A program made the position numbers and the translations under genes. From an uncultured bacterium (lineage in GTDB: Bacteria > Oederibacteriota > JAAXVQ01 > JAUVAV01), in assembly GCA_963710755.1 (NCBI GenBank), contig CAVQBK010000003.1, forward strand, positions 960,001 through 1,024,000: 64,000 nt of DNA, in the 5' to 3' direction. Below are positions 9,260-59,967 of this stretch, one piece after another. The notes below the pieces were generated by a model. It was not told where the DNA came from, did not search any database, and saw nothing but the letters and a program-made list of their open reading frames with translations. Within the stretch, counting starts at the first letter, position 1, and every line of letters begins with the position of its first letter.

Positions 9260-9288
9260 ACGATCATCGCGTAAAGGAGTTGGAAAAT

Positions 9289-9900
9289 ATGCCTTTTTTA
9301 AAAAGGTTCTTCATTTTATTGATCTTTGTGGCGGTGGGCTGCGCACCCCGAGTGCTGGTCCAGCCGGCGGTGGATCTGGAAAGATACAACCGCATCGCTG
9401 TTCTGCCGTTTGAATCGGACAGTTTTCTTTCCACGGTTGGCCATCAACTGGCCGATGAAGTGGTCGTGCAATTATTGAGAAAAGTCCCTACCTTGGATAT
9501 TGTGGAACGTACCCGTATTGATGCCTTGCTACAGGAACAGAATCTGGCCAACCGCGGTTACCTTAGTCCGGAATCAGCCATTGCCGTTGGCAAGATGCTG
9601 GGTGTAAAAGCCATTTTGACCGGCAGCATCTCCCTGTCCGTAGGAGATGTCCGTACCACCCGGGAAAACGAGCAACGGGTGGCCAGTGGCGTGGCCACGG
9701 TACGGTTTATTGATGTGGAAACCGGCAAGGTACTCTGGGCGAGAAGGGAAAAAAGTGATTATACCTTGTTTAAGTCTTTTGGTGACCGTGGCGAGAGTTA
9801 TGCCGTTAAAACCGATCATGAAATGATCCAGGAAATCATCGACGATTTAGCCAAAGAAGTGATCAAACCCTTTTATCCCCACTATGAATATCAATATTAA
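9289..9900 (+). CDS. CsgG/HfaB-family lipoprotein
   Basis: AAAGGAG RBS; lipobox AVGC; motifs IAVLPF, VERTRIDALLQEQ and VRFIDVETGKVLW. Confidence 0.75.
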   Translation: MPFLKRFFILLIFVAVGCAPRVLVQPAVDLERYNRIAVLPFESDSFLSTVGHQLADEVVVQLLRKVPTLDIVERTRIDALLQEQNLANRGYLSPESAIAVGKMLGVKAILTGSISLSVGDVRTTRENEQRVASGVATVRFIDVETGKVLWARREKSDYTLFKSFGDRGESYAVKTDHEMIQEIIDDLAKEVIKPFYPHYEYQY

Positions 9901-45165: not shown

Positions 45166-46327
45166 ACCCATGAACATAGGACTGGTCACGGACACGTACT
45201 TCCCCCGGGTCAACGGGGTGGCAAAATCAATCCAAACCTTTGCCCAGGAATTTGAAAAGCTCGGCCACAAAGTTTATATTTTTGCACCGCAATTTCCGGA
45301 AGCCAAAGAGTCCACGGAAACTCTTTGGCGATTTCCCTCGCAGTATCTGTTCTTTAATCCTGAAGACCGGCTCCCCAATCCTTTTAAAAAGCAATCCCGT
45401 CTTTTTTTAAAAAAAGTCTCGTCTTTGCATCTCGATGTCCTTCATACCCAGACGCCTTTCGCTTTGGGTATGGCCATGGCCCGCTTGGGCAAACGCCTGG
45501 GAATTCCCACGCTGCACACGTATCACACTTTATTTGAAGCCTATATGCCGCATTATTTTCCTTTTGTGCCCAAGGCCTTGAGTATTCCATTTGCCAAAAA
45601 ACTTAGTAAAATTCTGTGTGATATGCATGATTTTATAATTGTACCGTCAACATCTATTTATGAACGGCTTCAGAGTTACGGTGTGACCAAGCCTATAAAA
45701 ATTCTGCCGACCGGCACCGATCTTTCACCCTTTAAGCAGGTTGATCATCGCCGGATGCGTCAGCAAATCGGGCTCGCTGAGGATGAACCTATGCTGCTGA
45801 CTATGGGACGGGTGGCCCATGAGAAAAATCTTCCTTTTCTATTGGATGTGTATGAAAAACTCGCGCCCCGTTTTCCCAAAGCACGTTTGGTAATTGCCGG
45901 CGTGGGACCGGCCCTGGAGAGTGTGAAGGCCGAGACCAAACGACGGAAATTGGAAAATAAGGTGATGTTCATTGGGCTGCTGTCAAAGCAGGATTGGGCT
46001 GATCTCTACGCGGCCGCGGACATTAACCTTCTGGCTTCGGTTACGGAAACCCAGGGGCTGGTGCTCACGGAAGCCATGGCCGCCGGCACGCCTTGTGTGG
46101 CAGTAGCTGCCATGGGGGTAAAAGATGTTATGGCCGGTGGCGGCGGGTTGGCTGTGAACCTGGATGTGAACGAGTTTGCCGAGGCGGTTACCAGGCTATT
46201 GACGGACAAGGCGTTGTATGCAAAAGCCTTGGAAGAAGCGGCCCAGCAGGCCATTAATTGGTCAGCTGAAACCAAAGCCGAGGAAATGCTGGAGACTTAC
46301 CAGAAACTCATTAACAGTAAAAAATAA
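45158..46327 (+). CDS. glycosyltransferase family 4 (diacylglycerol glucosyltransferase-like)
   Basis: TDTYFPRVNGVA, HTYHT and ETQGLVLTEAMAAG. Confidence 0.9.
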   Translation: MDEPMNIGLVTDTYFPRVNGVAKSIQTFAQEFEKLGHKVYIFAPQFPEAKESTETLWRFPSQYLFFNPEDRLPNPFKKQSRLFLKKVSSLHLDVLHTQTPFALGMAMARLGKRLGIPTLHTYHTLFEAYMPHYFPFVPKALSIPFAKKLSKILCDMHDFIIVPSTSIYERLQSYGVTKPIKILPTGTDLSPFKQVDHRRMRQQIGLAEDEPMLLTMGRVAHEKNLPFLLDVYEKLAPRFPKARLVIAGVGPALESVKAETKRRKLENKVMFIGLLSKQDWADLYAAADINLLASVTETQGLVLTEAMAAGTPCVAVAAMGVKDVMAGGGGLAVNLDVNEFAEAVTRLLTDKALYAKALEEAAQQAINWSAETKAEEMLETYQKLINSKK

Positions 46328-46395
46328 ACCCAATCAAAATTGGTAAAAATCGACTAAAGCCAACACCATGGTTATACAGGTTATGGAGTACGCTG

Positions 46396-46698
46396 ATGGA
46401 AGACCATTTATCTGAAGAAGACATTAAAAAACTGTTTAAAATTAGGAAAAAAAAGCAATGGCTGGTTTTTATACCAGCTGTTATTTTTATCGTTGGATAC
46501 CAACTCTTGGGTTGGATGGGCGCCACCCATATTGGCGGGCTTCCGCGGCAAATTTTGTTCTATCCCTTCATTTTATTTATTATGGTAGGCATTGTGTATA
46601 TTTATATCAATTGGCGTTGTCCTGTATGCCGGAAATATCTGGGTGCCACCTTTAATCCTCGTATTTGCCCGAAATGCGGGACCACGCTCCGTGACTAA
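46396..46698 (+). CDS. small two-TM protein with a C-terminal zinc ribbon
   Basis: Two hydrophobic segments, then WRCPVC...CPKCG; GGAG RBS. Confidence 0.7.
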   Translation: MEDHLSEEDIKKLFKIRKKKQWLVFIPAVIFIVGYQLLGWMGATHIGGLPRQILFYPFILFIMVGIVYIYINWRCPVCRKYLGATFNPRICPKCGTTLRD

Positions 46699-46785
46699 AA
46701 GAGAAAGCCTATCCAGCACCTCATCTTCTTCCAACATTTCAAATAACCGGGAGCTCAATTAAGCCCGTAAAAATTCGTTTTTTCA

Positions 46786-46813
46786 TTGAGCCCCTTCCCG
46801 TTTGGCGTATAAT
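46786..46813 (+). promoter_or_regulatory. candidate sigma70 promoter
   Basis: TTGAGC-N16-TATAAT. Confidence 0.45.
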
Positions 46814-46953
46814 AAAGTCCTATTTCAGCTTAAAACAATCAGTTTTGGATAGTTGCGGCTATTTTTGCATTAAATAATGTCGCGAATCATATCCGAAATG
46901 GGTTGGAATCCTCGATAGGCGAGGTTTTATTTCGTTAAAAAAATTAAAAAAAG

Positions 46954-46982
46954 TGAAAGAAAATTTATAATCGTCCGTCTAA
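46954..46982 (+). promoter_or_regulatory. candidate ECF-sigma promoter (copy 1)
   Basis: A-tract followed by TGAAAG-N16-CGTCTAA. Confidence 0.5.
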
Positions 46983-47072
46983 AGAAACATAGCAATAAAA
47001 ATTTAAGGAAGTCGCGAGTGGATCTTAAACCATAAGCGGGAACTTTTCACTTTAACGGCTGGGAGGGAAAAA

Positions 47073-48014
47073 ATGGAGCCAATGTCCGGAAGCAAGCGAT
47101 CATTTCCACTTCGTGCTGTTCTTTGGTCTTTCAAGACCTGCTTTTTTGCTGCTATGATAATGATGTTTACAGGGATAGCGGTGCCCCAACTTCTCCGGGC
47201 CATGACCATTCATACGGCTGAAGAAACAGTTGCCAAGGATATTACCCAAGCCTTCAACCAAGTTACAGTGAAAATGTTCAACGGTTATATTAAAGTAGAA
47301 GCAGTTCCCCAGAAAAACGCTACCATGACCATTGTCAAACGGGGCAGTGGTTACAGTCCTGAAGAAGCCAAAGCGGATTTAAAAAATATTGATATCCAAA
47401 TAGCGGTCAAGGCAGGCCGTCTGGAAATTATTGCCAGACGTCTGGATAACCGTCTGGATCGGCCCAATAGCGGTGCCTCTGCCTCACTTCAAGTCCCGGT
47501 GAGCACCAGCTTGCTGCTGGCTTCCAGCAACGGCGAGATTGACGCTTTGGGTCCTGTAAATGCTGTTACAGCCAGTACCTCCAACAATCCAATTCAAGTG
47601 GTCGGGGCTAAAGGTCCATTGACCCTTGAAACCAGCAATGATCCCATTAATGTCGACGGTGGCAGCGGAAAATTAGTCCTGAAAAACAGCAATGGCGAGA
47701 TCACGGTCGTTAGTCAGTCGGCTGAAGTCTTGGCCGAGACCTCCAATAGCGCCATTCGCTTTGAAGGTGGCTTATTACCAGGTACCAGTCGATTTTCAAC
47801 CAGCAATGACGACATTACCTTGGTCCTAGGAAGTAGCACGGCCTTTAGCTTGGACGGGGAAACCTCCAATGGCGAAATTCGCAGTGATTTCAAATTTCAC
47901 CACCAACCATCGCAAAACGACCAAGACGTTGTCAAAGCCCAGACCAGCGCTCATCCAGCGGTTAAAATTATCTGCCGCACCAGCAATAGTGATATTACCA
48001 TCAATAAAAAATAA
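47073..48014 (+). CDS. DUF4097-family beta-strand-repeat protein
   Basis: N-terminal TM; repeated (T/S)SN(G/D/S)xI motifs. Confidence 0.8.
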   Translation: MEPMSGSKRSFPLRAVLWSFKTCFFAAMIMMFTGIAVPQLLRAMTIHTAEETVAKDITQAFNQVTVKMFNGYIKVEAVPQKNATMTIVKRGSGYSPEEAKADLKNIDIQIAVKAGRLEIIARRLDNRLDRPNSGASASLQVPVSTSLLLASSNGEIDALGPVNAVTASTSNNPIQVVGAKGPLTLETSNDPINVDGGSGKLVLKNSNGEITVVSQSAEVLAETSNSAIRFEGGLLPGTSRFSTSNDDITLVLGSSTAFSLDGETSNGEIRSDFKFHHQPSQNDQDVVKAQTSAHPAVKIICRTSNSDITINKK

Positions 48015-48020
48015 AAAAAA

Positions 48021-48049
48021 TGAAAGGAAATCCGGGCAAACCTGTCAAT
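48021..48049 (+). promoter_or_regulatory. candidate ECF-sigma promoter (copy 2)
   Basis: A-tract followed by TGAAAG-N16-TGTCAAT. Confidence 0.45.
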
Positions 48050-48160
48050 ACTAAGGGCGTAAAAATGATTTGAAATATTTTAGGCAGCACTAACCGGAGG
48101 CCCGATTATCTGATATACTTGCTTATGGTTTTAACGTTCCTTCATAATAAGTTCTCATTG

Positions 48161-48261
48161 ATCCCGGGGCAAACCTTGGGGATGAATGCGAAACAGTAAA
48201 ATAAAATTTCACTCGACTCAAATGCCCCACATTCGGGGCAGACCCGCGGCTTGCCGTGGGG
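48161..48261. repeat. pair of inverted REP-like hairpins (REPIN/MITE-like relic)
   Basis: ATCCCCGGGGCAAACCTTGGGAT (48161-48183) and CCCGCGGCTTGCCGTGGGG (48243-48261) are degenerate inverted copies. Confidence 0.5.
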
Positions 48262-48293
48262 AGATTTACGGGTCTTGCGCCCCGGAGGACGAC

Positions 48294-51200
48294 ATGTTAT
48301 TAGGGAATACTCAGTCTTTTTGTTACAGGAGCATGGTTGTCCTTGCTACAGCTATCTGCTTTTTAATGGTTCCTTCGTTTGCCTTATCCAAAAAAAAACC
48401 TGACGTCGTAGAAATTCGGATTAAAAGCGGCGGCCGGGACCAGAAAATCCAAGAAGGATTGGATAAAACCAATCAAGGTATTGCTGCCGCCATGAGCGAC
48501 AGCGAAGAAGGAATTGAGCAAAGCAGCGGGGCAGTCAGCCGGCATGAGATCAAAGAGGAAATCAGCAAACGTTCTTCCGAGGGTTTTAGCTCTGATACTG
48601 GAAAAAAATACAAGGAAATGGGAAGCCAACTCCAACAGGAAAATGAAGCGAGAGGTACAGAACTTCGGGAAACTTATACCCGACAAGGCGACCAGCTCAG
48701 AGCTGAAAACCAAGCTCGAGGTGATGAAGTAAAAAAAGAATCTCTGGCAAAAGTACAAGAAGCGCAAGATGAAATCAATGCTGATAAAATGAAGGATGAA
48801 TATGAACAGAAGGGTGCAGGTTATGCTAACAAGGCTAAACACGATCTGGGCGAAACTCTCTGGAAAGCTCATAACAGCCTTAATGATTCGGCTAATGCTG
48901 ATAAAAGGAAATTGAATTATGTGAGCGCTGAAGCCAACTACAAAGCCGCCGACAAATTGGTTGCTATCAAAAAAAAGCTGGACAAGACGGATGTCAACGG
49001 CAGCGTTCCCAAAGATGCACAACCCGATTCAACCGTTGATTATGAATCGTCCGGCAATAACATCTTGGCGGGACAAGATTCCAGTGACAAAAAAGCCGGT
49101 AGCAACAATCAGTCTAACATAAAGAACCCGCTTTCTAATGAGGTTATAAATGAAGGCGTTGTGACGATGTTAAAACAAAGCAAAATCCAATCATATATGG
49201 AAAGCAATATGGATAAGGCCACAGCTTTGCAAAAAAATAATCCCAGCGGGGCCGGCGTGGATTCTGGGCAATTCACCCAATCTGCCGGCGGTCTGACGGA
49301 TCAGTATCAGGGTACAGGTAATAATATTGGAATGCCAGGCGTTAATGGCAATGCCGATTTGATGTCCGGCACTATGGCTCAGAGTGGCGTAAAAATCACT
49401 GAAAATGGATCCAGGCAGGGTATTGGCACTGCTGCAGCTAACGGAAATAACGGATATGGATACATGGCGGGCAGTAGCATAGACGGCACTGGCAAAGGTA
49501 GCAACTATAGTAATGTTGCTACAAGTGGTAGTGGATCGGCTAACATTGAAGGTGCCAGCCATTCTGGCAGCAGTTCGGCCAGTAATGCAAATAGTTATTC
49601 TCAAAGCTCAGAAACTTATGCTGGCAGCAAAAGTGCCGGTGCCGGTAGTGGTGTCTCGAATTCTGCAGCAGGCACGGATAAAATAAATAGTAATTATGGT
49701 GGCGGTGGGGATAGTAGTGGGTCCGGATCTTCCGCATCCGCAGAAGCGGGCAGCAACGGCCAAAATCCCCGCAGCGGCGACCAATCGGAAAAAGCTGAAT
49801 CGCCAAGCGCCAGTAAGACAAGTGCCAAGCAACAGGGCAATTCTGGTAAACCCCAAAATGTTGCTGCAAACAGCAGTGTAGGAAACAAGCAGACTGTCAA
49901 AGGCCAGCCAGTTAATAACCCGTCTTCCAGCAAAAAAAATGCCAACGCCAACTCTTTGGCCCACGCTTACAAGCCTAAAACGGGTGGCACCAAGACTGCG
50001 GGTATTGTGGTCAATAGTGTGGATTATCATAGTACAGCAATTAATGCTGCCGTAGGCGAGAATGCAACATCGAATTTGGGGTCCATCGTTTTTAAAGGCA
50101 GTGAAATCAACGGCGTTGTTGTTAATAGCGATCAGGACGGCAATAATCGCATTAATGCTGCCGTGGGCGCCGCAACAGCCGCAAACCAAAGCAGTGTGGT
50201 TACTCGAAACAGCAAAATCAAGGGTGCAGTTGTCAACGCGGTGAGGGGACAAAACATGGTCAATGCGGCGGTGGGCGTAAACGCAGAAGCCAATCAAGGA
50301 TCTGTAGCTGTCAAAGAAAGCCAGGTCAACGGTGTCTTGATAAACTCATCCAGTAGTCAAACCCAGGTTAATGCGGCCATTGGCGAAAATGTTACCGCTA
50401 ATCAATCCGCAGTCCAAATACGATCCAGCCAAATGTCGGGTGCAGCGGTGAACGTGCAGAAAAGCCAGAACGCTATCAACGCAGCCATTGGAAACGATGC
50501 GCACAGTAACCAAGCCAGCACCCATTTAAAGAACAGTAAACTCGAAGGTGTGGCTGTTAATGCGGCCACAGGGAATAATCATATCAATGCAGGAATTGGT
50601 GCCGATGTTAAAGCCAATCAAACGTCCACGCATATGGAAAACAGCACCCTGCAAGGTGTGGCGGTCAATGGCGCTGCTGGTACCAATCTTACCAACGTGG
50701 GGATTGGGGGAAACGTGAAGGCCAACCAAGCGTCCACGCATATGGAAAACAGCACCCTGCAAGGTGTGGCGGTCAATGGCGCTGCTGGTACCAATCTTAC
50801 CAACGTGGGGATTGGGGAAAACGTGAAGGCCAACCAAGCGTCCACGCATATGGAAAACAGCACCCTGCAAGGTGTGGCGGTCAATGGTGCTGCCGGTGCT
50901 AATCTCACCAACGTGGGGATTGGGGAAAACGCGAAAGCCAACCAAGCAGCCACGCACATGGAAAACAGCCGGCTGCAAGGTGCTGCCATAAATATTGCCG
51001 GTGGTGCAGCGGCGACCAATGTTGGGATCGGTGAAAATGTAAAAGCCAACCAAGCGTCCACGCATATGGAAAACAGCCGGCTGCAAGGTGCTGCCATAAA
51101 TATTGCCGGTGGTGCAGCGGCGACCAATGTTGGGATCGGTGAAAATGTAAAAGCCAACCAAGCGTCCACGCATATGGAAAACAGCACCCTGCAAGGTGTA

Positions 51201-52733
51201 GCTGTTAATGGTGGTGCCGGAGCCTATCTCACCAACGTGGGCATAGGTTCGAATGTGAAAGCCAACCAAGCATCCACACACATGAAAAACAGTCGGCTGC
51301 AAGGTACTGCCGTAAATATTGTCGGCGGCGCAGCTGCTACCAACGTGGGGATTGGGGAAAACGTGAAAGCCAATCAAGCGTCCACGCATATGGAAAATAG
51401 CACCCTGCAGGGTGCTGCAGTGAATACTGCTGGTGGCGCGGTGGTAACCAACGTAGGAATCGGTGAAAACGTGAAAGCCAGTCAAGGCTCAACTCATATG
51501 GAAAACAGCCGGCTGCAAGGCGCGGCCGTGAATATCGCTGGTGGTGCGGCCACCACCAATGTAGGGATTGGAGAAAATGTGAAAGCCAGTCAAGGTTCAA
51601 CTCATATGGAAAACAGCCGGCTGCAAGGCGCGGCCGTGAATATCGCCGCCGGCGTGGCAGTGACCAATGTTGGTATTGGCCAAAACGTTAAAACCAATCA
51701 AGGCGCTACAAGTCTGGAAAATAGCCGGATGCACGGAGCCGCAGTTAACCTTGTCGGGGGAGCTGGTGCTACCAATGTAGGTATCGGTGAGAATGTCAAA
51801 GCTAACCAGGCATCAGTGAGTGCAAAAAACAGTCATTTGAACGGCATGGCGGTAAATGCCGGTGTGGGTGGGCTTCTTACCAATATTGGTATTGGTAAGA
51901 ATGTCAAAGCCAATCAGGCGTCTGTACGCGCCGTCAATAGTTCGGTCAAAGGCTCGGTGATAAATGCTACTGCTGCTGGGTTGGCTACCAATGTGGCTAT
52001 TGGGGAGAACGCCACCTCCAATCAGACATCCGTGCACACAGAAGGCAGTCATATGCAGGGTGAAGTTAAAAATACAGCCGTTGCTGGGGCTGCTACCAAT
52101 ATTGCCATTGGTAAAAATGTTAAGGCCAATCAGGCGGCCGTGCACTTGAAAAATAGTAATCTCAAAGGTAACGTGAATAATAATGCTGGCGGTGGTTTAA
52201 TGACCAACGTGGCTATTGGCGAGGGTGCCACAGCCAACCAAGCGGCCGTGGATATGGAGAACAGCACCTTAAAAGGTAATGTTTCTAATAATATTTCCGG
52301 TGTTGCAGGTACCAATATTGCTCTCGGCGGCAACGGAACCAAGGCCAATCAATCTGCGGTGGTTATGAAAAATAGCCAATTGGAAGGCGACGTTAATAAT
52401 AATGTGAGCAGCATTGGCACGAATTTAGCACTTTCCGGGGGACGTGCCAATCAGGGAACGGTTTATATGGAAAAAGCCAGTTACCGCGGAAATATTACCA
52501 ACAACGTTTCAGGTATGACAGCGACCAATTTGGCAGTGGGTAATAATGCCGAAGCGAATTCCGCATCTGTGGTGATTAAAAATCGCTCCGGTGGAGGTGG
52601 ACTTCACACTGGTTCTGGTGCGGGAATTGTGATAAACGACATTAAGGTTCCTGGCGGTAGCTTGACGGGGCAGAATTTAAATGTACAGGCGGGAAAAGGG
52701 ACTTCAAATAAAAATTCTGTGGTATTCAAATGA
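48294..52733 (+). CDS. giant secreted repeat protein: charged helical N-region, S/G/N-rich linker and ~24 x 36-aa amyloid/beta-solenoid-like repeats
   Basis: GGAGG RBS before the ATG at 48294; signal peptide ending VPSFA; repeat consensus TNVGIGENVKANQASTHMENSxLQGxAVNxAGGAAx. Confidence 0.8.
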   Translation: MLLGNTQSFCYRSMVVLATAICFLMVPSFALSKKKPDVVEIRIKSGGRDQKIQEGLDKTNQGIAAAMSDSEEGIEQSSGAVSRHEIKEEISKRSSEGFSSDTGKKYKEMGSQLQQENEARGTELRETYTRQGDQLRAENQARGDEVKKESLAKVQEAQDEINADKMKDEYEQKGAGYANKAKHDLGETLWKAHNSLNDSANADKRKLNYVSAEANYKAADKLVAIKKKLDKTDVNGSVPKDAQPDSTVDYESSGNNILAGQDSSDKKAGSNNQSNIKNPLSNEVINEGVVTMLKQSKIQSYMESNMDKATALQKNNPSGAGVDSGQFTQSAGGLTDQYQGTGNNIGMPGVNGNADLMSGTMAQSGVKITENGSRQGIGTAAANGNNGYGYMAGSSIDGTGKGSNYSNVATSGSGSANIEGASHSGSSSASNANSYSQSSETYAGSKSAGAGSGVSNSAAGTDKINSNYGGGGDSSGSGSSASAEAGSNGQNPRSGDQSEKAESPSASKTSAKQQGNSGKPQNVAANSSVGNKQTVKGQPVNNPSSSKKNANANSLAHAYKPKTGGTKTAGIVVNSVDYHSTAINAAVGENATSNLGSIVFKGSEINGVVVNSDQDGNNRINAAVGAATAANQSSVVTRNSKIKGAVVNAVRGQNMVNAAVGVNAEANQGSVAVKESQVNGVLINSSSSQTQVNAAIGENVTANQSAVQIRSSQMSGAAVNVQKSQNAINAAIGNDAHSNQASTHLKNSKLEGVAVNAATGNNHINAGIGADVKANQTSTHMENSTLQGVAVNGAAGTNLTNVGIGGNVKANQASTHMENSTLQGVAVNGAAGTNLTNVGIGENVKANQASTHMENSTLQGVAVNGAAGANLTNVGIGENAKANQAATHMENSRLQGAAINIAGGAAATNVGIGENVKANQASTHMENSRLQGAAINIAGGAAATNVGIGENVKANQASTHMENSTLQGVAVNGGAGAYLTNVGIGSNVKANQASTHMKNSRLQGTAVNIVGGAAATNVGIGENVKANQASTHMENSTLQGAAVNTAGGAVVTNVGIGENVKASQGSTHMENSRLQGAAVNIAGGAATTNVGIGENVKASQGSTHMENSRLQGAAVNIAAGVAVTNVGIGQNVKTNQGATSLENSRMHGAAVNLVGGAGATNVGIGENVKANQASVSAKNSHLNGMAVNAGVGGLLTNIGIGKNVKANQASVRAVNSSVKGSVINATAAGLATNVAIGENATSNQTSVHTEGSHMQGEVKNTAVAGAATNIAIGKNVKANQAAVHLKNSNLKGNVNNNAGGGLMTNVAIGEGATANQAAVDMENSTLKGNVSNNISGVAGTNIALGGNGTKANQSAVVMKNSQLEGDVNNNVSSIGTNLALSGGRANQGTVYMEKASYRGNITNNVSGMTATNLAVGNNAEANSASVVIKNRSGGGGLHTGSGAGIVINDIKVPGGSLTGQNLNVQAGKGTSNKNSVVFK
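50040..52730 (+). repeat. 108-bp intragenic tandem repeat array
   Basis: For example ACCAACGTGGGGATTGGGG at 50691 and 50799 (period 108). Central units are nearly identical and outer units have diverged. Confidence 0.92.
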
Positions 52734-52960
52734 GCTTATGTACAAACAGGGCGTCTTTCCTTTGCTCTAAGGCCAGGCTGTTGGCATGAGCATTAAGTGG
52801 CCTCTCAATTTATTTTACCAGAGGCAATAAAGATCTGAGCGCTAGCAAAATATTTTTTTAAACAGACAATCTAACGTGGGAGGTGAACAGAACCATAGAA
52901 AGGGATTTTTTAGAAATTAGGCTTAATGAAAAAACATTCTTAAAAAAATGAGGAGGAATT

Positions 52961-53707
52961 ATGAAGAAAATCAGTTTATTTATCGCAATGTTATCTTTGT
53001 TAGCCATGCAAGCCTATGCTGCATCCAGCTCACAGGTGGGCGGTGAGATGAGCAATGAATCAAAAATTGGTAAAAATGCTATTAATGCCGCGGTCGGCGA
53101 CGGGTCCAAAGCAAATATGGGTTCTATTAAGTTTTCCGGCACAACCACGGAAAAAGGAAGCAGTGTTAAAAACAGCTCCAATATCGAAGGTGGGGCTATC
53201 AACGCCTCGGTTGGAGAAAACACCACTGCCAACATGGGCTCGATCAGCATGAAGAATACCAAAATTCAAGGTACAGTGAATAATTCAGCTAACGTCACCA
53301 AAGGTTCAATTAACGCTGCAGTGGGCAAGAATTCCAAAGCCACCATGTCCAGCATTGAGATCGAGGGCGGAGGCGTGGGAAAAACCGGCACAGTAAATAA
53401 TGCAGCAGTTATGAAAGGTAAGCAAATCAATGCCGCAGTGGGCGATGGCTCTAGTGCCAGTATGGGTAGTGTTTCCCTTAAGAATAGTCAAGTGAATGGC
53501 GAAATTAATAATACCGCTAATATCACAGGCGGTATTAATGCCGCGGTGGGTGATCACTCGAAAGCCACCATGGGTTCTGTGGATATAGCGAATACGAATG
53601 TCACATCAGGCGCCACCGTTAACAACAGCGCCAGTATTGACAACGGCATCAATGCTTCGGTAGGAAGGAACACCGAAGCGAATATGGGCTCGATTTCGGG
53701 AGAATAG
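52961..53707 (+). CDS. secreted protein of six 36-39-aa repeats; putative major fibre/amyloid subunit
   Basis: AGGAGG RBS; Sec signal ending AYA; six INA(A/S)VGxx(S/T)xAxM(G/S)S(I/V) repeats; no P, C, W or Y in the mature chain. Confidence 0.8.
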   Translation: MKKISLFIAMLSLLAMQAYAASSSQVGGEMSNESKIGKNAINAAVGDGSKANMGSIKFSGTTTEKGSSVKNSSNIEGGAINASVGENTTANMGSISMKNTKIQGTVNNSANVTKGSINAAVGKNSKATMSSIEIEGGGVGKTGTVNNAAVMKGKQINAAVGDGSSASMGSVSLKNSQVNGEINNTANITGGINAAVGDHSKATMGSVDIANTNVTSGATVNNSASIDNGINASVGRNTEANMGSISGE

Positions 53708-53720
53708 CAAACCGGAAAGA

Positions 53721-53756
53721 TTCCCCGGGCCGGGTAGGAATGTACGGCCCGGGGAA
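53721..53756 (+). other. strong intercistronic hairpin (possible mRNA-stabilising stem)
   Basis: Perfect 12-bp stem TTCCCCGGGCCG/CGGCCCGGGGAA with no T tract on the + strand. Confidence 0.65.
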
Positions 53757-53838
53757 AATATATAGGGGTGAAGTTGTTCGAATTCTGGGTTTATGGGTTC
53801 AAGCATTGAGGTCAGCAGAGAGTGTGCTGGCAGATTGG

Positions 53839-54198
53839 ATGAAGATAATGCGAAAGCTCGCCATTTTTTTATTTGCTGGTATTGCCTATTGTATTATATT
53901 ACCCGCCTTTGTTGTATGGGGAAATGATTTAGATGATGGGATTTCCACCTATACCGATGAATCTATTGGGGCGGATGATGATTTAGGTAGTAGTGCCAAC
54001 AATATCAATTTTATTGTAGTAGATGCCGTTGGAAAAGCCAAAACAAGAAAAAGTGCTGATGCCAAAGACAAGGGCAACGACGCCCAAAAAAACGTCACCA
54101 ATGTTTATGATGGGCAGTCGGACAACAACGAAAACAGTGTGGTGGTGGAAGCAGGGAGCAAGGTGGACAAGGTTTATAATATTGTCATTGAAAAATAG
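53839..54198 (+). CDS. small acidic secreted protein, putative accessory factor
   Basis: Signal-like MKIMRKLAIFLFAGIAYCIILPAFVVWG, then NDLDDGI...; C-terminal NENSVVVE...VYNIVIEK. Start could also be 53848. Confidence 0.65.
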   Translation: MKIMRKLAIFLFAGIAYCIILPAFVVWGNDLDDGISTYTDESIGADDDLGSSANNINFIVVDAVGKAKTRKSADAKDKGNDAQKNVTNVYDGQSDNNENSVVVEAGSKVDKVYNIVIEK

Positions 54199-54240
54199 CT
54201 GGTAATTCTTTAATATACTATTTCTTGCTGGAGTTAACCC

Positions 54241-55386
54241 ATGATAGTGAGTGCCAAGATGAAGGTCCCTCGGAAAACAAGCGTTCTTACATTTCAATCA
54301 CTGATGATTGTTGGGTTGAGTTTGCTGCAATTGGCTTGCTCCTCTTTGGACCCACGGCAGGTGGATATGGAGCTTAAAGAGACCAAGCCGTTCACAACGA
54401 TTACCAACTACACCCAATCCCTGCACAATCTGGGGTTGATGACGGAAATCTATGGCACTCCCAACATGAAGATTCAGTGCCAGCCAGTGGGAGACAATAC
54501 CGGGTCCTCCATGGCCACTGGCGGCGAAATTCCTCGCGATATTACGGAGATGATGAAAAGTGCCCTTAATTCTATCGGCGGCCGGACTGTGTATATTCCC
54601 TATGATCCTTCTTTTATCCAGAACCAAATGGTCACCGGGTACTCCAATTTTTCCAATAAAGTCATTCCCGACGTGGTACTCACCGGAGGGATTACCGAAT
54701 TTGACCGCGGCTTGGAAACGCGTGGTACCAACACCGATGCAAGTGCTGACGCAGAATTTAAAGGCTTACCCGCGGACTTTCCCTCCGCCGCTACGGGAAT
54801 TCGCTACAGCAGTGCTGACAAATATGGGGTGGCCCGTATAACTCTGGATTTTAATCTTCTCGATTTTCAAACCATGACCGGGTTGTCGCGTATGAATACG
54901 GTCAATTCTATGGAAGTCAGGAAAGTACTGGCAGACCGGGAATTGGGCATCAGCTTATTTGGTCAGTCTTTTGGCGGTAAAGGCAGTATTAAAAAAGTCC
55001 AGGGACGGCATGCGGCTGTCAGGGTACTGGTGGAACTGAGCATGATTGAGTTGGTAGGTAAACATCTCATGCTTCCTTACTGGCGTCTTTTAGGTAATGA
55101 TGCTACACCCGACCGCGTCGTGCTGGACAGCATTGACAATTACTTTTACAATTTAACCAATACCGGTGTGACGGCCAGCGTCCAGGAATGGTTATATCTC
55201 TATGGCTATAATGTGGCTCTGACCGGCGTTTTAGATAAAGCCACGCTGGCAGCCCTGAAAAAAGTTTATCCTGATTATAACGCCAATTTAGGGACTATTG
55301 ATCTGCAGACCTTTCGCTATGTGTATCTGAACATCCCGATTGATTTGAGTGCCAAAAGAAGGCGAAGACAGTTTGATACCCTGTAA
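54241..55386 (+). CDS. CsgG/HfaB-like lipoprotein with a C-terminal peptidoglycan-binding-like domain
   Basis: Lipobox QLAC; CsgG-like segments PDVVLTGGITEFDR and ITLDFNLLDFQT; tail VQEWLYLYGY...TGVLDKATLAALK resembles PG_binding_1. Confidence 0.65.
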   Translation: MIVSAKMKVPRKTSVLTFQSLMIVGLSLLQLACSSLDPRQVDMELKETKPFTTITNYTQSLHNLGLMTEIYGTPNMKIQCQPVGDNTGSSMATGGEIPRDITEMMKSALNSIGGRTVYIPYDPSFIQNQMVTGYSNFSNKVIPDVVLTGGITEFDRGLETRGTNTDASADAEFKGLPADFPSAATGIRYSSADKYGVARITLDFNLLDFQTMTGLSRMNTVNSMEVRKVLADRELGISLFGQSFGGKGSIKKVQGRHAAVRVLVELSMIELVGKHLMLPYWRLLGNDATPDRVVLDSIDNYFYNLTNTGVTASVQEWLYLYGYNVALTGVLDKATLAALKKVYPDYNANLGTIDLQTFRYVYLNIPIDLSAKRRRRQFDTL

Positions 55387-55415
55387 CTATATTTCTGCAT
55401 AAGGTGGGAGCGTTG

Positions 55416-55994
55416 ATGAAGAAATATATCCTAACAGCATTCATAATCATGGTTTTATCCACGGCTGGTTACGCAGCCAATCGTATGGCTAAGAAGCATC
55501 TGGCGCTGGGTGATCGTTTATTTCAACAGCACCGCGTTGAAGAGGCGATTCAGGAATGGCAAATTGCTCTGGATCTGGACAAAAAGCTAGTGATTGCCAA
55601 GGAAAACATTGAGGCTGCCCGGTATTATCAAAAGCACGGCGAAATGCCTGTCAAAAAAGAACCAGAAGTGATTCAAACCGATGTGGATAATTTACCGGGA
55701 GCGGAAAAACCCATTGTGAAACCTCAACCCAAAGTTCCCGTGGATCGAATTAAAACTGAGATTTTACAAATTGAAAAAAACGGAGGACGGGCCACCAAAA
55801 TCTTAATCAATGCTGGCACGGCCAATGGCGTGGGGGTGGGCATGGAAGGTATTGTAGTAGAGCTCAATGGCGCCCCCCTGGCGGCTTTCCGGGTCACTGC
55901 TGCCGATACGGATAAAAGCTTGGCTGACATTATTTCCCTCAATCGGGATGTGAGCAATACAGCTGTTGCCATCGTGGACCGGCCCAGGGAGTAA
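55416..55994 (+). CDS. secreted TPR protein with a C-terminal beta domain (FlgT-C-like)
   Basis: Signal ending GYA; TPR-like HLALGD...EEAIQEWQIALDLD; INAGTANGVGVGM motif. Confidence 0.6.
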   Translation: MKKYILTAFIIMVLSTAGYAANRMAKKHLALGDRLFQQHRVEEAIQEWQIALDLDKKLVIAKENIEAARYYQKHGEMPVKKEPEVIQTDVDNLPGAEKPIVKPQPKVPVDRIKTEILQIEKNGGRATKILINAGTANGVGVGMEGIVVELNGAPLAAFRVTAADTDKSLADIISLNRDVSNTAVAIVDRPRE

Positions 55995-56052
55995 GTTGTT
56001 TAAAACGAAAATATTTTGACGATGTATTTCGCGTTTACCAGCTTTATACGTG

Positions 56053-56085
56053 GGCCTGCCTTTTCCAGAAAGGCTGGCCTTTTTT
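56053..56085 (+). terminator. intrinsic terminator closing the repeat-protein locus
   Basis: GGCC-T-GCCTTT/AAAGGC-T-GGCC hairpin followed by a T run. Confidence 0.7.
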
Positions 56086-56154
56086 ATTTTATCCAGAACT
56101 TCAATTTAAGACTTAACCGGAGTACCTTTATGTATGAGGCGCTCCGCTTTGGGC

Positions 56155-56183
56155 TTGACGGTACTTGGGATCAGCACTATAAT
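56155..56183 (+). promoter_or_regulatory. sigma70 promoter of polC
   Basis: TTGACG-N17-TATAAT. Confidence 0.7.
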
Positions 56184-56205
56184 CTCGTCCTTGTATGAAT
56201 AAGAC

Positions 56206-59200
56206 GTGGAGACAACCATGAGCTGTGATGTACGCTTGGAGTCTATTGCCCTAACCCCTCTGTTAAAAAATGTCCTTGAAAACCTGGAAATCGCCGATCA
56301 TATGAAAAAACACGTACTCAGTGCCCAAGCATCCTCTGTGACGGTCACCACCAAGCCCCCAACTATTTTGATCCAATTATTATCCAATCATGCCATTGAA
56401 AAGCCTGCTCTGGAAGCTTTATCCCAGTCCTTAAGTGAAACGTGGGACCAACCATCCCCCCCCCGCATCGTTTGGGATTTGCATTACCCCAATGGTCAGG
56501 TCTCGGCCCTTGCCTATCTGCAGGAACATTGGCAGGATTTGTTGGTGGTTTTTTCCAAGGAAGTCAATATGGCCGCGGCTTATCTGTCTCTGGTACGGTT
56601 TCAAGCTCTGGAAGAAGGGAAAATTAAAATCGCCCTGGCTAATAAAATGAGTTTGGCGGCTTTGAAAAAGCAAGAAGGGGACAAAAAGATCAGTCGGTTG
56701 TTGAGTGAGCGGTTGCAGCGCGAAATTCAGGTGAAATTTGAACTGGGCAATTTCGAAGAAGAAGTCAAACACCGCGAAGCTTTATATGAACAGCGCATTC
56801 GGGAAGAGTTGGAAAGGATGCAGCAAGAAAAAGATCTGGGGCCACAATCTGACGGCCAGGATCGGCCTCATGGAGGCAAACCACAAAAAGCAGCCTGGAA
56901 GCTGGTTTTTGGCAGAAGCATCGCCGGCCAGCCACGTCCTATCAAAGAGATCAACGAAGAAGAAAAAAATGTTGTTTTTGAGGGGGAATTGGTAGCTTTT
57001 GAAAAAAAGGTGTTGCGCACCGGACGGCAGCTGGTACTGATGGATATTTATGATAAAACCAGCAGTATTAATGCGCGCATGTTTGTGGATGCAGAGCAAC
57101 AGGTTTCGTCTGAGATTAAATGCGGCGCCTATGTACGAATTAAAGGATCCGTTCAGACAGATAAATATTCTCAAGATTTATGCATGATGGTCAATAGTGT
57201 GATGGTTGGAGAAAAAGAGCGGCGCCATGATCTTATGGCAGCCCAGGATAAACGGGTGGAGTTGCATGCCCATTCGCAAATGAGTGCCATGGATGCTTTA
57301 CCGGAAGTCAAACAGCTGGTGGCCAAAGCTGCGGAATTCGGCCATCCCGCTGTGGCCATCACGGATCATGGTGTGGTGCAGGGGTTTCCTGAGGCTATGG
57401 CTGCTGCTTCAGCCCATGGACTTAAAGTGATCTATGGGGTGGAAAGCTATTTGATCGAGGATGAATGGCTCAAAGATAAAAAACCCAAACGGCCTTATCA
57501 TATTGTTATTTTAGTCAAAGAATTCAAGGGGTTACGCAATCTCTACCGTTTGACCTCGGAAGCGCATCTCAAGTACTTTTATCGTCATCCTCGTATTCCC
57601 CGCTCCTTGCTGGAAAAATACCGGGAAGGGCTGATTTTTGGAACTGCCTGCGAACAAGGGGAGTTATACCGGCGCCTGTTGGAAGGGGCCAATGACCAGG
57701 AGCTGGCGGTTATTGCCGGCCGCTATGATTATGTGGAAATTATGCCTAATGGCAACAATCAGTTCCTTATCCGCAATGGTGTGGTCAAGGATGATCTGGA
57801 ACTTCAGGCCATTAATAAACGGCTTGTGGCCATCGCCCAAAGTCAGGGCCGCCCGGTGGTGGCCACGGGGGATGTTCACTTTCTGGAACCAGGTGATGAA
57901 ATTTTCCGATGTATTTTGCAAGCCGGCCAGGGCTATGATGATGCAGCGCAACAAGCTCCCCTTTATTTCCACACCACCGAAGAAATGCTAAAAGAATTCG
58001 ATTATCTGGGTGAACCCTTAGCCAAAGAGGTTGTGATCCAAGGTCCGCAAAAGGTAGCCGGATGGATTGAAAAAATTGAACCTCTAAAACTGGATTTTTA
58101 CCCGCCCAAACTACCTGACGCGGAAGCCAAATTGGAAAAAATGGCCCTCAGCCGGGCCCATGAAATCTACGGCACACCCTTGCCTGAAGTGGTGGACCAA
58201 CGGTTAAAACGGGAAATTACGGCTATCAACCACAATAAATTTGCCAGTTTATTTCTCATAGCCCGTGAACTGGTGCAAAAATCGCTGGCCGACGGTTATC
58301 TGGTAGGTTCGCGCGGATCGGTCGGGTCCTCCTTAACTGCGACCATGCTGGGGATTACCGAGGTCAATCCGCTGCCCGGGCATTACTTATGCACCAGCTG
58401 TCGTCATGTGGCTTGGGATGTGGAAGGCCGTATGGGCGCCGATTTACCGGATGAACAATGTCCGGTTTGTGGCCTGGTCATGAGCAAGCAAGGCATGGAC
58501 ATTCCCTTTGAAGTCTTCATGGGCTTTAAAGGGGATAAAACACCCGACATTGACTTGAATTTTTCCGGAGAATACCAAAGCCGGGCTCATAAATTTTTAG
58601 AAGAATTGTTTGATGCTGATCACATTTTCAGGGCAGGCACTATCTCGACGGTGGCCGATCGGACGGCTTATGGGTTTGTAAAAAAGTATTTGGATGACAA
58701 CAAACTGGTATTGCGTGAAGCTGAGATCAATCGTTTGACCCGGGGATGTGCGGGTGTCAAAAAAACTACCGGTCAGCATCCAGGCGGCATCATGATTGTA
58801 CCTGCCGATATGTCGATTTATGATTTTACGCCTGTGCAGCGACCTGCGGACGATAAAAATTCCGACGTCGTGACCACACATTTGGACTATCACGCCATCC
58901 ACGATGCCTTACTTAAATTGGATGTGCTCGGCCACGATGATCCTACCTCCCTACGCCGGCTGGGGGACTGGACCGGAGTGGATGTCAGATCCATTCCTTT
59001 GGATGATCCGGAAACATTAAAGATATTTTCCGGTCTGGACTCTTTGGGCCTTTCAGAAGCAGACATCCACACTGGGATCGGCACTCTGGGCATTCCCGAA
59101 TTTGGAACGGAATTCGTAAGACAGATGTTGGATATCACCAAGCCCAAGGCCTTTTCTGAATTAGTACGCATCTCCGGCCTGTCGCACGGCACCGATGTAT

Positions 59201-59967
59201 GGCTTAATAATGCTGCTGATCTTATTAAGGCCGGTACAGCTACCCTTTCCACGGTTATTTCAGCCCGTGATGACATTATGAATTACCTTATTTCCAAAGA
59301 TTTGGAACCATCCTTGGCTTTCAAAATAATGGAATCCGTTCGCAAAGGTAAGGGGCTGACGCCGGAGTGGGAAACAGCCATGAAAAACCATAAAGTACCC
59401 GAGTGGTACATCGAATCCTGTAATAAGATTAAATACATGTTTCCCAAGGCCCATGCGGTGGCTTATTGCATTATGGCCTTCAGGATAGCTTATTTTAAAG
59501 TACATTTCCCAACTGCTTTTTATGCCAATTACTTTTCTTTAAATGCGGAATCCTTCGATGCCCAACTGGTGGTTTTTGGAGGGTTGCAGGGGGTTAATAA
59601 TAAATTAAAGGAACTTAAAGGCCGCCAGGATTTGACGGCCAAGGATAAAAATGCTCAGACCGTACTGGAAGTTGTCCGGGAAGCCTTTGCCCGGGGCATT
59701 GAATTTAAACCGGTGAACATGGCCATCTCCGCGGCCGAAACCTTCAAGATCCTGGGGGACAAGCAAATTATCCCACCTCTGATATCCTTAAACGGCCTGG
59801 GTCTGACGTGCGCCAAAAAAATTGTCCAGGAAAGGGAGCTCAGGCTTTTCCGGTCAGTGGAGGATTTGAGCAAGCGTACGGGAGCCAATAAAAACGTCAT
59901 CGAAATCATGACTCAGCATGGATGCTTGACCGTATTGCCGGCCAGCGATCAAACGTCGTTGTTTTAA
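56206..59967 (+). CDS. polC: PolC-type DNA polymerase III lacking the embedded 3'-5' exonuclease
   Basis: N-terminal OB fold before PHP (RVELHAHSQMS..D), GSRGSVGSS, Zn finger C..C...C..C, KTPDIDLNFSG, KLDVLGHDDPT and IKYMFPKAHA. Confidence 0.95.
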   Translation: METTMSCDVRLESIALTPLLKNVLENLEIADHMKKHVLSAQASSVTVTTKPPTILIQLLSNHAIEKPALEALSQSLSETWDQPSPPRIVWDLHYPNGQVSALAYLQEHWQDLLVVFSKEVNMAAAYLSLVRFQALEEGKIKIALANKMSLAALKKQEGDKKISRLLSERLQREIQVKFELGNFEEEVKHREALYEQRIREELERMQQEKDLGPQSDGQDRPHGGKPQKAAWKLVFGRSIAGQPRPIKEINEEEKNVVFEGELVAFEKKVLRTGRQLVLMDIYDKTSSINARMFVDAEQQVSSEIKCGAYVRIKGSVQTDKYSQDLCMMVNSVMVGEKERRHDLMAAQDKRVELHAHSQMSAMDALPEVKQLVAKAAEFGHPAVAITDHGVVQGFPEAMAAASAHGLKVIYGVESYLIEDEWLKDKKPKRPYHIVILVKEFKGLRNLYRLTSEAHLKYFYRHPRIPRSLLEKYREGLIFGTACEQGELYRRLLEGANDQELAVIAGRYDYVEIMPNGNNQFLIRNGVVKDDLELQAINKRLVAIAQSQGRPVVATGDVHFLEPGDEIFRCILQAGQGYDDAAQQAPLYFHTTEEMLKEFDYLGEPLAKEVVIQGPQKVAGWIEKIEPLKLDFYPPKLPDAEAKLEKMALSRAHEIYGTPLPEVVDQRLKREITAINHNKFASLFLIARELVQKSLADGYLVGSRGSVGSSLTATMLGITEVNPLPGHYLCTSCRHVAWDVEGRMGADLPDEQCPVCGLVMSKQGMDIPFEVFMGFKGDKTPDIDLNFSGEYQSRAHKFLEELFDADHIFRAGTISTVADRTAYGFVKKYLDDNKLVLREAEINRLTRGCAGVKKTTGQHPGGIMIVPADMSIYDFTPVQRPADDKNSDVVTTHLDYHAIHDALLKLDVLGHDDPTSLRRLGDWTGVDVRSIPLDDPETLKIFSGLDSLGLSEADIHTGIGTLGIPEFGTEFVRQMLDITKPKAFSELVRISGLSHGTDVWLNNAADLIKAGTATLSTVISARDDIMNYLISKDLEPSLAFKIMESVRKGKGLTPEWETAMKNHKVPEWYIESCNKIKYMFPKAHAVAYCIMAFRIAYFKVHFPTAFYANYFSLNAESFDAQLVVFGGLQGVNNKLKELKGRQDLTAKDKNAQTVLEVVREAFARGIEFKPVNMAISAAETFKILGDKQIIPPLISLNGLGLTCAKKIVQERELRLFRSVEDLSKRTGANKNVIEIMTQHGCLTVLPASDQTSLF

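Follow-up and report, generated by a model that had tools for sequence, protein, structure and literature searches.

A candidate type VIII-like export module with a new family of 36-residue-repeat proteins in an uncultured Oederibacteriota bacterium

The locus and its genes

The DNA analysed here (the window) is a stretch of 64,000 nucleotides from an uncultured bacterium of the Oederibacteriota (GenBank assembly GCA_963710755.1, contig CAVQBK010000003.1, positions 960,001 to 1,024,000 of the forward strand). Five co-oriented open reading frames (ORFs) lie on its plus strand at 48186-55994, all at the coordinates of the initial ORF list, and with their likely start codons they make up an operon of five genes, A to E, at 48294-55994. 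The operon encodes two secreted proteins that share a 36-residue repeat (A and B), a small acidic secreted protein (C), a lipoprotein with a predicted CsgG-type fold (D) and a secreted protein with a tetratricopeptide repeat (TPR) unit (E), and its probable role is the export of a rod or fibre of a new kind to the cell surface. On balance, and by no wide margin of confidence, we read the locus as a type VIII-like export module, comparable to those of curli and the holdfast anchor but of a family not yet described.

A single intrinsic terminator at 56052-56086 on the plus strand, a 12-pair hairpin with a U-run, lies 3' of E and ends the operon. No plus-strand terminator comparable to it was found in the intergenic gaps from A to E. 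An earlier note on this DNA had described five co-oriented genes closed by one terminator, and that layout is borne out. None of A, B, C and D passes a Pfam or NCBIfam threshold, and Rfam gave no match across 46000-57000. The flanks consist of housekeeping genes, with proS and a glycosyltransferase gene upstream and polC and murB downstream. The genome encodes Omp85-family proteins, and an outer membrane is therefore present.

Repeat proteins A and B

The large repeat subunit A (48294-52733, plus strand) is delimited by its ORF, its start codon and ribosome site, its repeats and its composition. The ORF spans 48186-52733, and the likely start is the ATG at 48294 behind a GGAGGA, which gives a protein of 1479 residues. 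A Sec-type signal, as read from the sequence, is followed by approximately 550 low-complexity residues free of cysteine, first rich in lysine and glutamate and then in serine, glycine and asparagine. About 24 repeats of 36 residues follow this N-terminal extension, and a 67-residue tail ending in SNKNSVVFK completes the protein. The small repeat subunit B (52961-53707, plus strand), supported by its ORF, ribosome site, repeats and AlphaFold2 model, has 248 residues behind a strong GAGGAGG ribosome site. It comprises only a signal peptide (MKKISLFIAMLSLLAMQAYA) and 5.5 repeats of 36-39 residues, and it stops mid-repeat. The repeat region of A, 829 residues long, contains no cysteine, tryptophan or proline, and the same holds for the repeat region of B.

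The array of 36-residue (108-nt) units in A lies at 50043-52628 on the plus strand, as defined by Tandem Repeats Finder and by a repeat hidden Markov model (HMM) built from the window's own repeats, which finds 24 domains in A. At 50610-51642, Tandem Repeats Finder counts 9.6 copies of a 108-nt period with 82% matches. The motif N-x-[AGS]-[ILV]-[GS] returns at 36-residue intervals along A (about 24 units) and at intervals of 36-39 residues along B (6 matches). This spacing and the 108-nt period together confirm the 36-39-residue repeat, rich in asparagine, glycine, alanine and serine, that the earlier note saw in both proteins. The central units of A (50610-51808) are near-identical in DNA, with nested periods of 108, 216 and 324 nt, which suggests recent expansion by unequal recombination. 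The long antisense ORFs across the array are by-products of the repeat.

Within its own genome the repeat HMM detects A and B only. Relatives of D were collected from one genome per species, which gave 198 relatives, and 80 loci were kept for all locus counts given here; the HMM finds 109 ORFs across 71 of them. Alignment of 731 repeat units from 102 ORFs gave a spacing of 36 in 505 cases, with 35 the next most frequent (69), and revealed five near-invariant positions (N1, G5, A10, G24 and N28) within the signature N-[VI]-A-x-G...A-N-x-G-S...G-x-V-x-N. Two subunit classes recur across phyla, each with its own conserved C-terminus. Small subunits stop mid-repeat at ...ANMGSVxxE, as seen in an alignment of 31 of them. 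Large subunits have 13-34 repeats and share the end ...GQNxNIAxGGxTSNKNSVVFK, which is kept across phyla. Elsewhere the large subunits measure 450-1300 residues, with repeats directly after the signal peptide; over the whole family a large subunit can exceed 1600 residues. The N-terminal extension of approximately 550 residues is present only in the window and in loci L006 and L025. The "giant" size that the earlier note gave to this subunit is lineage-specific.

Various tools were used to place the repeat among characterised proteins. A word-index homologue search with B returned one protein by single sequence and 12 by profile, none of them named, and an exhaustive profile search yielded 280 proteins (E ≤ 0.001), of which many are fragments. 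Searches of PDB sequences with B and with the B-family profile gave no match, ESM Atlas look-ups for B and C gave nothing at or above 0.9, Pfam Curlin_rpt had no match on A or B, and hhalign showed no signal between the B family and CsgA of E. coli (E 0.27 over 12 columns). The earlier suggestion that the repeat falls outside characterised families agrees with the searches of Pfam, NCBIfam and PDB sequences and with the CsgA comparison. Judged by sequence, A and B constitute a family of repeat proteins not assigned to any known family.

Structure prediction, which the earlier note had proposed for the repeat proteins, was run for B by AlphaFold2 with the alignment of 31 small subunits. The model (predicted local distance difference test score, pLDDT, 92.6; predicted template modelling score, pTM, 0.85) is an all-beta solenoid without caps, in which the signal peptide is the sole helix. 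With high confidence, B is predicted to be an uncapped beta-helix. A Foldseek search of the model against the PDB found nothing at E ≤ 0.001, and an exhaustive structural search found generic beta-helices, among them a bactofilin with a root-mean-square deviation of 1.9 over 82 of 90 residues. Because of this bactofilin fit and the strand pattern, we infer that each 36-residue repeat makes two turns of approximately 18 residues. At the textbook rise of 4.8 Å per turn, the lengths would be approximately 5-6 nm for B and approximately 23 nm for the repeats of A. A complex prediction for three mature copies of B (alignment A2), run without controls, scored 0.01 against a mark of 0.42 and is neutral on stacking.

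A conserved hairpin after the small repeat gene

Directly 3' of B lies a GC-rich stem-loop (53721-53756, plus strand), identified by its folding energy and by its position, which is kept in related loci. It has a 12-bp stem without a U-run and a minimum free energy (MFE) of -36.4 kcal/mol (z -3.84). In a survey of related loci, the final repeat gene ahead of C was located, and the 90 nt past its stop codon were folded and compared with shuffled sequences, z below -2 counting as stable. Of 70 loci, 64 have a stable hairpin at this place past the small repeat gene, and the MFE is -25 kcal/mol or lower in 63. At the control positions, past C, D and the large subunit gene, the counts are 3 of 75, 7 of 79 and 1 of 29, respectively; the shuffles preserved mononucleotide composition only, so that the z-scores are rough and the contrast with the control positions carries the result. 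The uninterrupted stem has at least 10 bp in 49 of the 70 loci (median 12 bp, approximately 25 nt past the stop codon), and 13 of these 49 have a T-rich tail. The stems differ in sequence between lineages.

The hairpin is a candidate attenuator or stabiliser of the mRNA 3' end that would raise the small-subunit transcript over the downstream genes. Its conservation after the small repeat gene and its rarity at control positions suggest that B is the abundant (major) subunit. Genes for the major subunits of fimbriae have the same gene-then-hairpin arrangement.

Alternatively, export through D may be real while A and B act as monomeric rod-like surface adhesins or spacers held by C and D, with nothing amyloid-like about them. 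The repeat count of 13-34 among large subunits varies as it does in length-variable adhesins, and the long disordered N-terminal region of A could be a tether. However, the B family consists of a signal peptide and repeats only, ends mid-repeat and has no capping element, and the pairing of large and small subunits with different C-termini, along with the hairpin, fits a nucleator and major-subunit design better. We regard monomeric rods as rather unlikely, though a serious contender.

The lipoprotein D and its predicted CsgG fold

D (54241-55386, plus strand) is a putative outer-membrane lipoprotein, assigned through its family alignment, its model, Foldseek and hhalign. Its lipobox reads LQLAC, and Cys33 is invariant in all 36 of 36 homologues. 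The family search found 864 proteins at E ≤ 0.001 among 5065 candidates, mostly unnamed, with identities of 58-89% among the matches listed; 36 members were aligned, and each was also scanned singly against Pfam and NCBIfam. Pfam CsgG (PF03783, cut-off 20.8 bits) matches 11 of the 36 weakly, with a best E of 5.6e-5, and five of six further homologues scanned singly for CsgG gave 14.5-20.3 bits, all below 20.8. The NCBIfam model HfaB (NF037935) is weakly matched by 12 of the 36 (best E 8e-5), while the window's D scores 15.8 bits (E 0.0061) against an equivalog cut-off of 300 bits. PG_binding_1 matches 19 of the 36 homologues, and three of the 36 have a fused C-terminal TPR region. In D itself the C-terminus is a PG_binding_1-like helical domain.

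The AlphaFold2 model of D (pLDDT 78.4, pTM 0.69) has the alpha/beta core and the two long beta-hairpins that together mark a CsgG fold. The Foldseek comparison of 54241-55386 with CsgG, which the earlier note had put forward, did return a CsgG-type fold, the best matches all being CsgG chains (6l7a, E 2.6e-9). These chains align to the model over approximately 200 residues that include the two long hairpins, as against 110-140 residues for relatives that have the core only. In the family alignment the hairpins are nearly invariant and show a conserved alternation of hydrophobic and polar residues, as expected of amphipathic strands. By hhalign, the D family aligns with E. coli CsgG over 232 columns (pairwise E 0.008) and has the D-x-T-G loop in common with it. 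The "CsgG/HfaB-like motifs" of the earlier note therefore fare unevenly: a CsgG-type fold is predicted, but the motifs fall below every curated threshold, and it is because of the predicted fold, not motif scores, that D is considered kin to CsgG. We read D as a remote branch of the CsgG superfamily that carries an extra peptidoglycan tether and lies outside the curated CsgG and HfaB families.

The window has a second lipoprotein gene at 9280-9900 (plus strand, 206 residues), whose product passes the Pfam CsgG cut-off with 35.9 bits over profile positions 16-147. Flanked by an MBL-fold gene on one side and an AMMECR1-like ORF on the other, it is a solitary gene, and its product resembles an LpoB-type member without hairpins more than it does a channel.

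The secreted proteins C and E

C lies in an ORF at 53740-54198 with a likely start at 53839 (53839-54198, plus strand) and is supported by homologues in related loci. The earlier note had described a small acidic secreted protein, and C fits that description with a mature length of approximately 90 residues and an isoelectric point of 4.3. Alignment A3 divides the family into a conserved acidic head (DLDDGISxYTDDSI...NINFI), a linker that varies and a tail (GDNNENSVV...YNIxxxK). By eye, the tail strand N-x-N-S-V-V resembles the C-terminus of the large subunit. Pfam has no match to C, and neither do PDB sequences searched with the C-family profile. An EF-hand-like calcium loop in the acidic head was considered and dropped, the spacing there, judged by eye, not being canonical.

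E (55404-55994, plus strand), recognised by its TPR match and by homologues of its C-terminal domain, has a signal peptide, one TPR unit (residues approximately 28-77), a linker rich in proline and lysine and a conserved C-terminal domain of 80 residues. Pfam TPR_11 (E 6.9e-4) and TPR_2 (E 0.004) each match under their cut-offs. Among PDB sequences the only matches of E are to consensus TPR proteins, over residues 28-77, with an E of 1.8e-14 summed over their repeats. The earlier label of a TPR protein holds for the motif, but only one unit is clear and the 80-residue domain belongs to no known family. In 8 of 80 loci the gene downstream of D encodes this domain too, and in five of these it is fused to a PorV/FadL-like region. 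The fusions are 430-490 residues long with the E-type domain at the C-terminus (L006:10155-11621; also L005, L008, L010 and L025), and their N-terminal part weakly resembles PorV/FadL outer-membrane barrels (Pfam PorV, E 2.7e-4). A comparison of the C-terminal domain of E with the C-terminal extensions of long D homologues showed no similarity.

Conservation, linkage and possible horizontal spread

The records of the D relatives are labelled FCPU426, Nitrospirota, Desulfuromonadales, Desulfobacterales, Desulfobulbales, Elusimicrobia and others, and the cultured carriers include Geomonas sp. Red32 (L019) and Desulfuromonas thiophila (P0104). Of the 80 loci, 71 have a repeat ORF and 36 have at least two. 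In 65 loci such an ORF precedes D on its strand by no more than 1.5 kb, and in six it is located in another part of the locus. In seven of the nine loci where none was found, D lies less than 1 kb from the locus end, at a contig edge. A homologue of C occurs in 75 of 80 loci and is directly upstream of D in 66. Desulfobulbales-type loci (L062, L067, L068, L071 and L079) have a permuted order, in which D, LPP20 and the small protein lead and, 2-3 kb further downstream in the same orientation, the large and then the small repeat gene are followed by C.

Downstream of D, most loci encode an LPP20 lipoprotein (65/80), a protein of approximately 120 residues (46), one of approximately 100 residues (52), a DUF2807 protein (42/80) and a DegP-like protease (23/80). 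An alternative accessory set, with the E-type C-terminal domain joined to a TPR or a PorV/FadL-like region, is found in eight loci and the window. Such envelope genes in most loci, namely those for LPP20, DUF2807 and the DegP-like protease, are also what might be expected if D were a periplasmic peptidoglycan-bound ring or scaffold like FlgT, LpoB or PelC and the repeat proteins stayed in the periplasm, serving as an envelope scaffold or in stress; the PG_binding_1-like domain of D agrees with that too. Against this stand the alignment of CsgG over approximately 200 residues including the hairpins, compared with 110-140 for the core-only relatives, the amphipathic and nearly invariant character of those hairpins, and the lack of cysteine, proline and tryptophan in the repeat proteins, which suits passage through a narrow pore. 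A periplasmic scaffold is accordingly, in our estimate, improbable.

In the window's phylum, D occurs in 6 of 99 genomes, all of one order, and the repeat occurs in the same six, on the same contigs and adjoining D, while the other 93 hold neither. As the relatives are not independent, this co-occurrence reflects a few events and not six. The co-occurrence check proposed earlier with a repeat HMM therefore came out in favour of linkage, both in the 71 of 80 loci and in the same 6 of 99 genomes. Low-complexity repeats can yield spurious ORFs, and several long antisense ORFs overlap A, so that the repeat ORFs might not be genes, or the five genes might be neighbours by chance. Gene order kept across phyla, the exact co-occurrence within the phylum, the signal peptides and ribosome sites and the confident fold of B all speak against this, and we give it next to no credence.

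Two complete genomes of the same family that are without the module (G031 and G032) have the same neighbours, proS, the glycosyltransferase gene and polC. The gap between the glycosyltransferase gene and polC is approximately 0.6 kb and 2.3 kb in these genomes and 9.9 kb (46327-56206) in the window, where the five-gene module shares it with gene U (DUF4097) and a zinc-ribbon ORF. The module block is thus an insertion between the glycosyltransferase gene and polC in this genome. In another genome that has the module (G029), module and polC are on different contigs, though 17.9 kb is present upstream of polC. The identity of D across phyla is 53-67%, and this, with the block at different sites within one family, fits horizontal spread. 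Two genomes of the window's order and family have more than one complete copy of the module, each on its own contig: G022 on C2, C10 and C16, and G025 on C35 and C95.

U (47073-48014, plus strand) is a membrane-anchored DUF4097 "toastrack" protein (Pfam 27.3 bits against a cut-off of 22.9). It is possibly associated with the module, because it lies inside the same inserted block. A homologue of U adjoins the module in 1 of 80 loci (L025), and U is absent from all five of the family genomes searched. No pairwise similarity was found between U and the DUF2807 proteins of other loci; we take DUF4097 and DUF2807 to form one "toastrack" superfamily. The block also holds a 100-residue ORF at 46396-46698 (plus strand), with two predicted membrane helices and a C-terminal CxxC...CxxC zinc-ribbon, for which Pfam gave weak zinc-ribbon matches only. 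Beyond the block, 56206-59967 (plus strand) encodes a PolC-type DNA polymerase III alpha subunit of 1253 residues with PolC N-terminal, OB, PHP, finger and HhH domains; the exonuclease domain is not among its Pfam matches.

Comparison with known systems

To our knowledge, only two CsgG-type pathways have been characterised, curli and the Caulobacter holdfast anchor, both in Proteobacteria. The curli system of E. coli comprises the subunits CsgA and CsgB, the channel CsgG and the proteins CsgC, CsgE and CsgF. Curli have a CsgG-fold lipoprotein, as is predicted for D, and two Sec-dependent subunits that consist of imperfect repeats only and form open-ended beta-solenoids, as is likewise predicted here. 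The genes of the minor and major curli subunits stand side by side, like A and B, and a small secreted accessory gene adjoins the channel gene, as C adjoins D. The differences are that the curlin unit has approximately 22 residues whereas the repeat here has 36, that D falls below the Pfam CsgG cut-off and has an extra peptidoglycan-binding-like domain, and that the large subunit of this module can exceed 1600 residues. Open-ended beta-solenoids without caps are described as polymerising in a survey of CsgA proteins with curlin repeats (Sleutel et al. 2023, PMC10192328). In a survey of canonical curli, a single system was found in Desulfovibrionales, and CsgA homologues had as many as 22 repeats (Dueholm et al. 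2012, PMC3521004).

The holdfast anchor (HfaA, HfaB, HfaD and HfaE) has a CsgG-like lipoprotein, HfaB, to which D homologues match weakly (12/36), and its gene order is, as we take it, hfaA-hfaB-hfaD, with a small protein gene directly upstream of the lipoprotein gene, like C and D. A preprint on HfaE, which also reviews HfaA, HfaB and HfaD, describes Caulobacter HfaB as a CsgG-like lipoprotein that two secreted proteins require to reach the surface, where they form multimers resistant to sodium dodecyl sulfate (10.1101/2022.07.20.500906). The module differs from this system in the score of D (15.8 bits against an HfaB cut-off of 300), in that A, B and C have no NCBIfam match and in that no holdfast polysaccharide genes are evident in this operon. 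In the ESM Atlas, a neighbour cluster with Pfam HfaD appears at rank 24 with a score of 0.77, which serves as a lead only.

The Fap system of Pseudomonas, whose subunits are FapB and FapC, resembles the module in encoding minor and major secreted repeat subunits in one operon, and its repeat is presumably of similar length. It exports through the FapF barrel, whereas a CsgG-fold lipoprotein is predicted here and no FapF-type barrel is encoded. The model of B and FapC (9u4u) are both beta-solenoids, with a Foldseek E of 0.054 and a TM-score of 0.10-0.13, and a remote relation between them is conceivable. The repeat profile matches no PDB chain by sequence. As for the "Fap-length repeats" of the earlier note, the likeness to Fap is presumably one of length only. 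Bactofilins are polymer-forming beta-helices of the cytoplasm. They have one short domain and are not secreted, and A and B have no Pfam bactofilin match.

Proposed mechanism and its weighing

The following course of events would account for the module. A, B and C, which are free of cysteine, would cross the inner membrane unfolded by the Sec route. D, through its CsgG fold, would oligomerise in the outer membrane, the two amphipathic hairpins forming a barrel and the C-terminal domain tethering the protein to peptidoglycan. A and B would then pass through D and fold outside as triangular beta-helices with two turns per 36-residue repeat. B, which is without caps and may be in excess owing to the stem-loop 3' of its gene (by attenuating or stabilising the transcript), would add end-to-end onto A. 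The C-terminal tail of A and C, which have the related N-x-N-S-V-V strand motif, would act as nucleator or anchor at the channel, and E may be a periplasmic helper. Inferred here are the passage of the proteins through D, their place on the cell surface, their polymerisation and the parts given to C and E.

Several points weigh against this interpretation. What ties D to CsgG is solely its predicted fold. Pfam CsgG does not match the window's D at E ≤ 0.1, and searches of PDB sequences with D, or with the profile of its homologues, matched no chain, CsgG included. The model of D is weakest, with pLDDT values of 52-62, at the putative constriction loop and immediately before the hairpins. CsgG of E. 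coli forms a nonameric 36-stranded outer-membrane barrel whose constriction loop carries Tyr, Asn and Phe; the loop of D aligned with it is five residues shorter and lacks aromatics, in an alignment of low confidence. No CsgE or CsgF equivalent was found by sequence, with Pfam on C and E and hhalign on the C family (CsgF, E 0.045 over 14 columns; CsgE, E 0.47), just as the earlier note had found neither gene recognisable. The best structural matches of B are autotransporter passengers, and long beta-helices also exist as monomeric adhesins. Finally, A alone would be a rod of approximately 23 nm, so polymerisation would not be needed to explain the proteins.

With these points taken into account, the export module remains the reading that we prefer. 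The full set of claims, taken jointly, is more tentative and somewhat short of an even chance: a third CsgG-type branch, building an extracellular beta-helical filament from a new family of 36-residue-repeat proteins, in which the large subunit and C would nucleate or anchor the filament and a stem-loop would set the excess of the small subunit, and which would have spread horizontally among anaerobic phyla, here as a block of approximately 9 kb.

Significance

Searches of the literature on CsgG-type secretion and functional amyloids, covering the main texts of articles outside subscription journals, turned up no account of the module. It is present in approximately 200 species-level genomes (198 relatives) of Desulfobacterota, Nitrospirota, FCPU426, Elusimicrobia and others. 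If the proposed reading is true, a third pathway would show how widely the design of the CsgG channel generalises, in a module that combines unrelated cargo, a peptidoglycan-tethered channel and different helpers. The conserved hairpin 3' of the small subunit gene is a candidate regulatory element open to direct testing, and the repeat proteins would offer a new self-assembling beta-helix scaffold for materials work. For the organisms themselves, the module would represent an unrecognised surface structure in anaerobes of sediment and subsurface, including metal- and sulfur-cycling groups.

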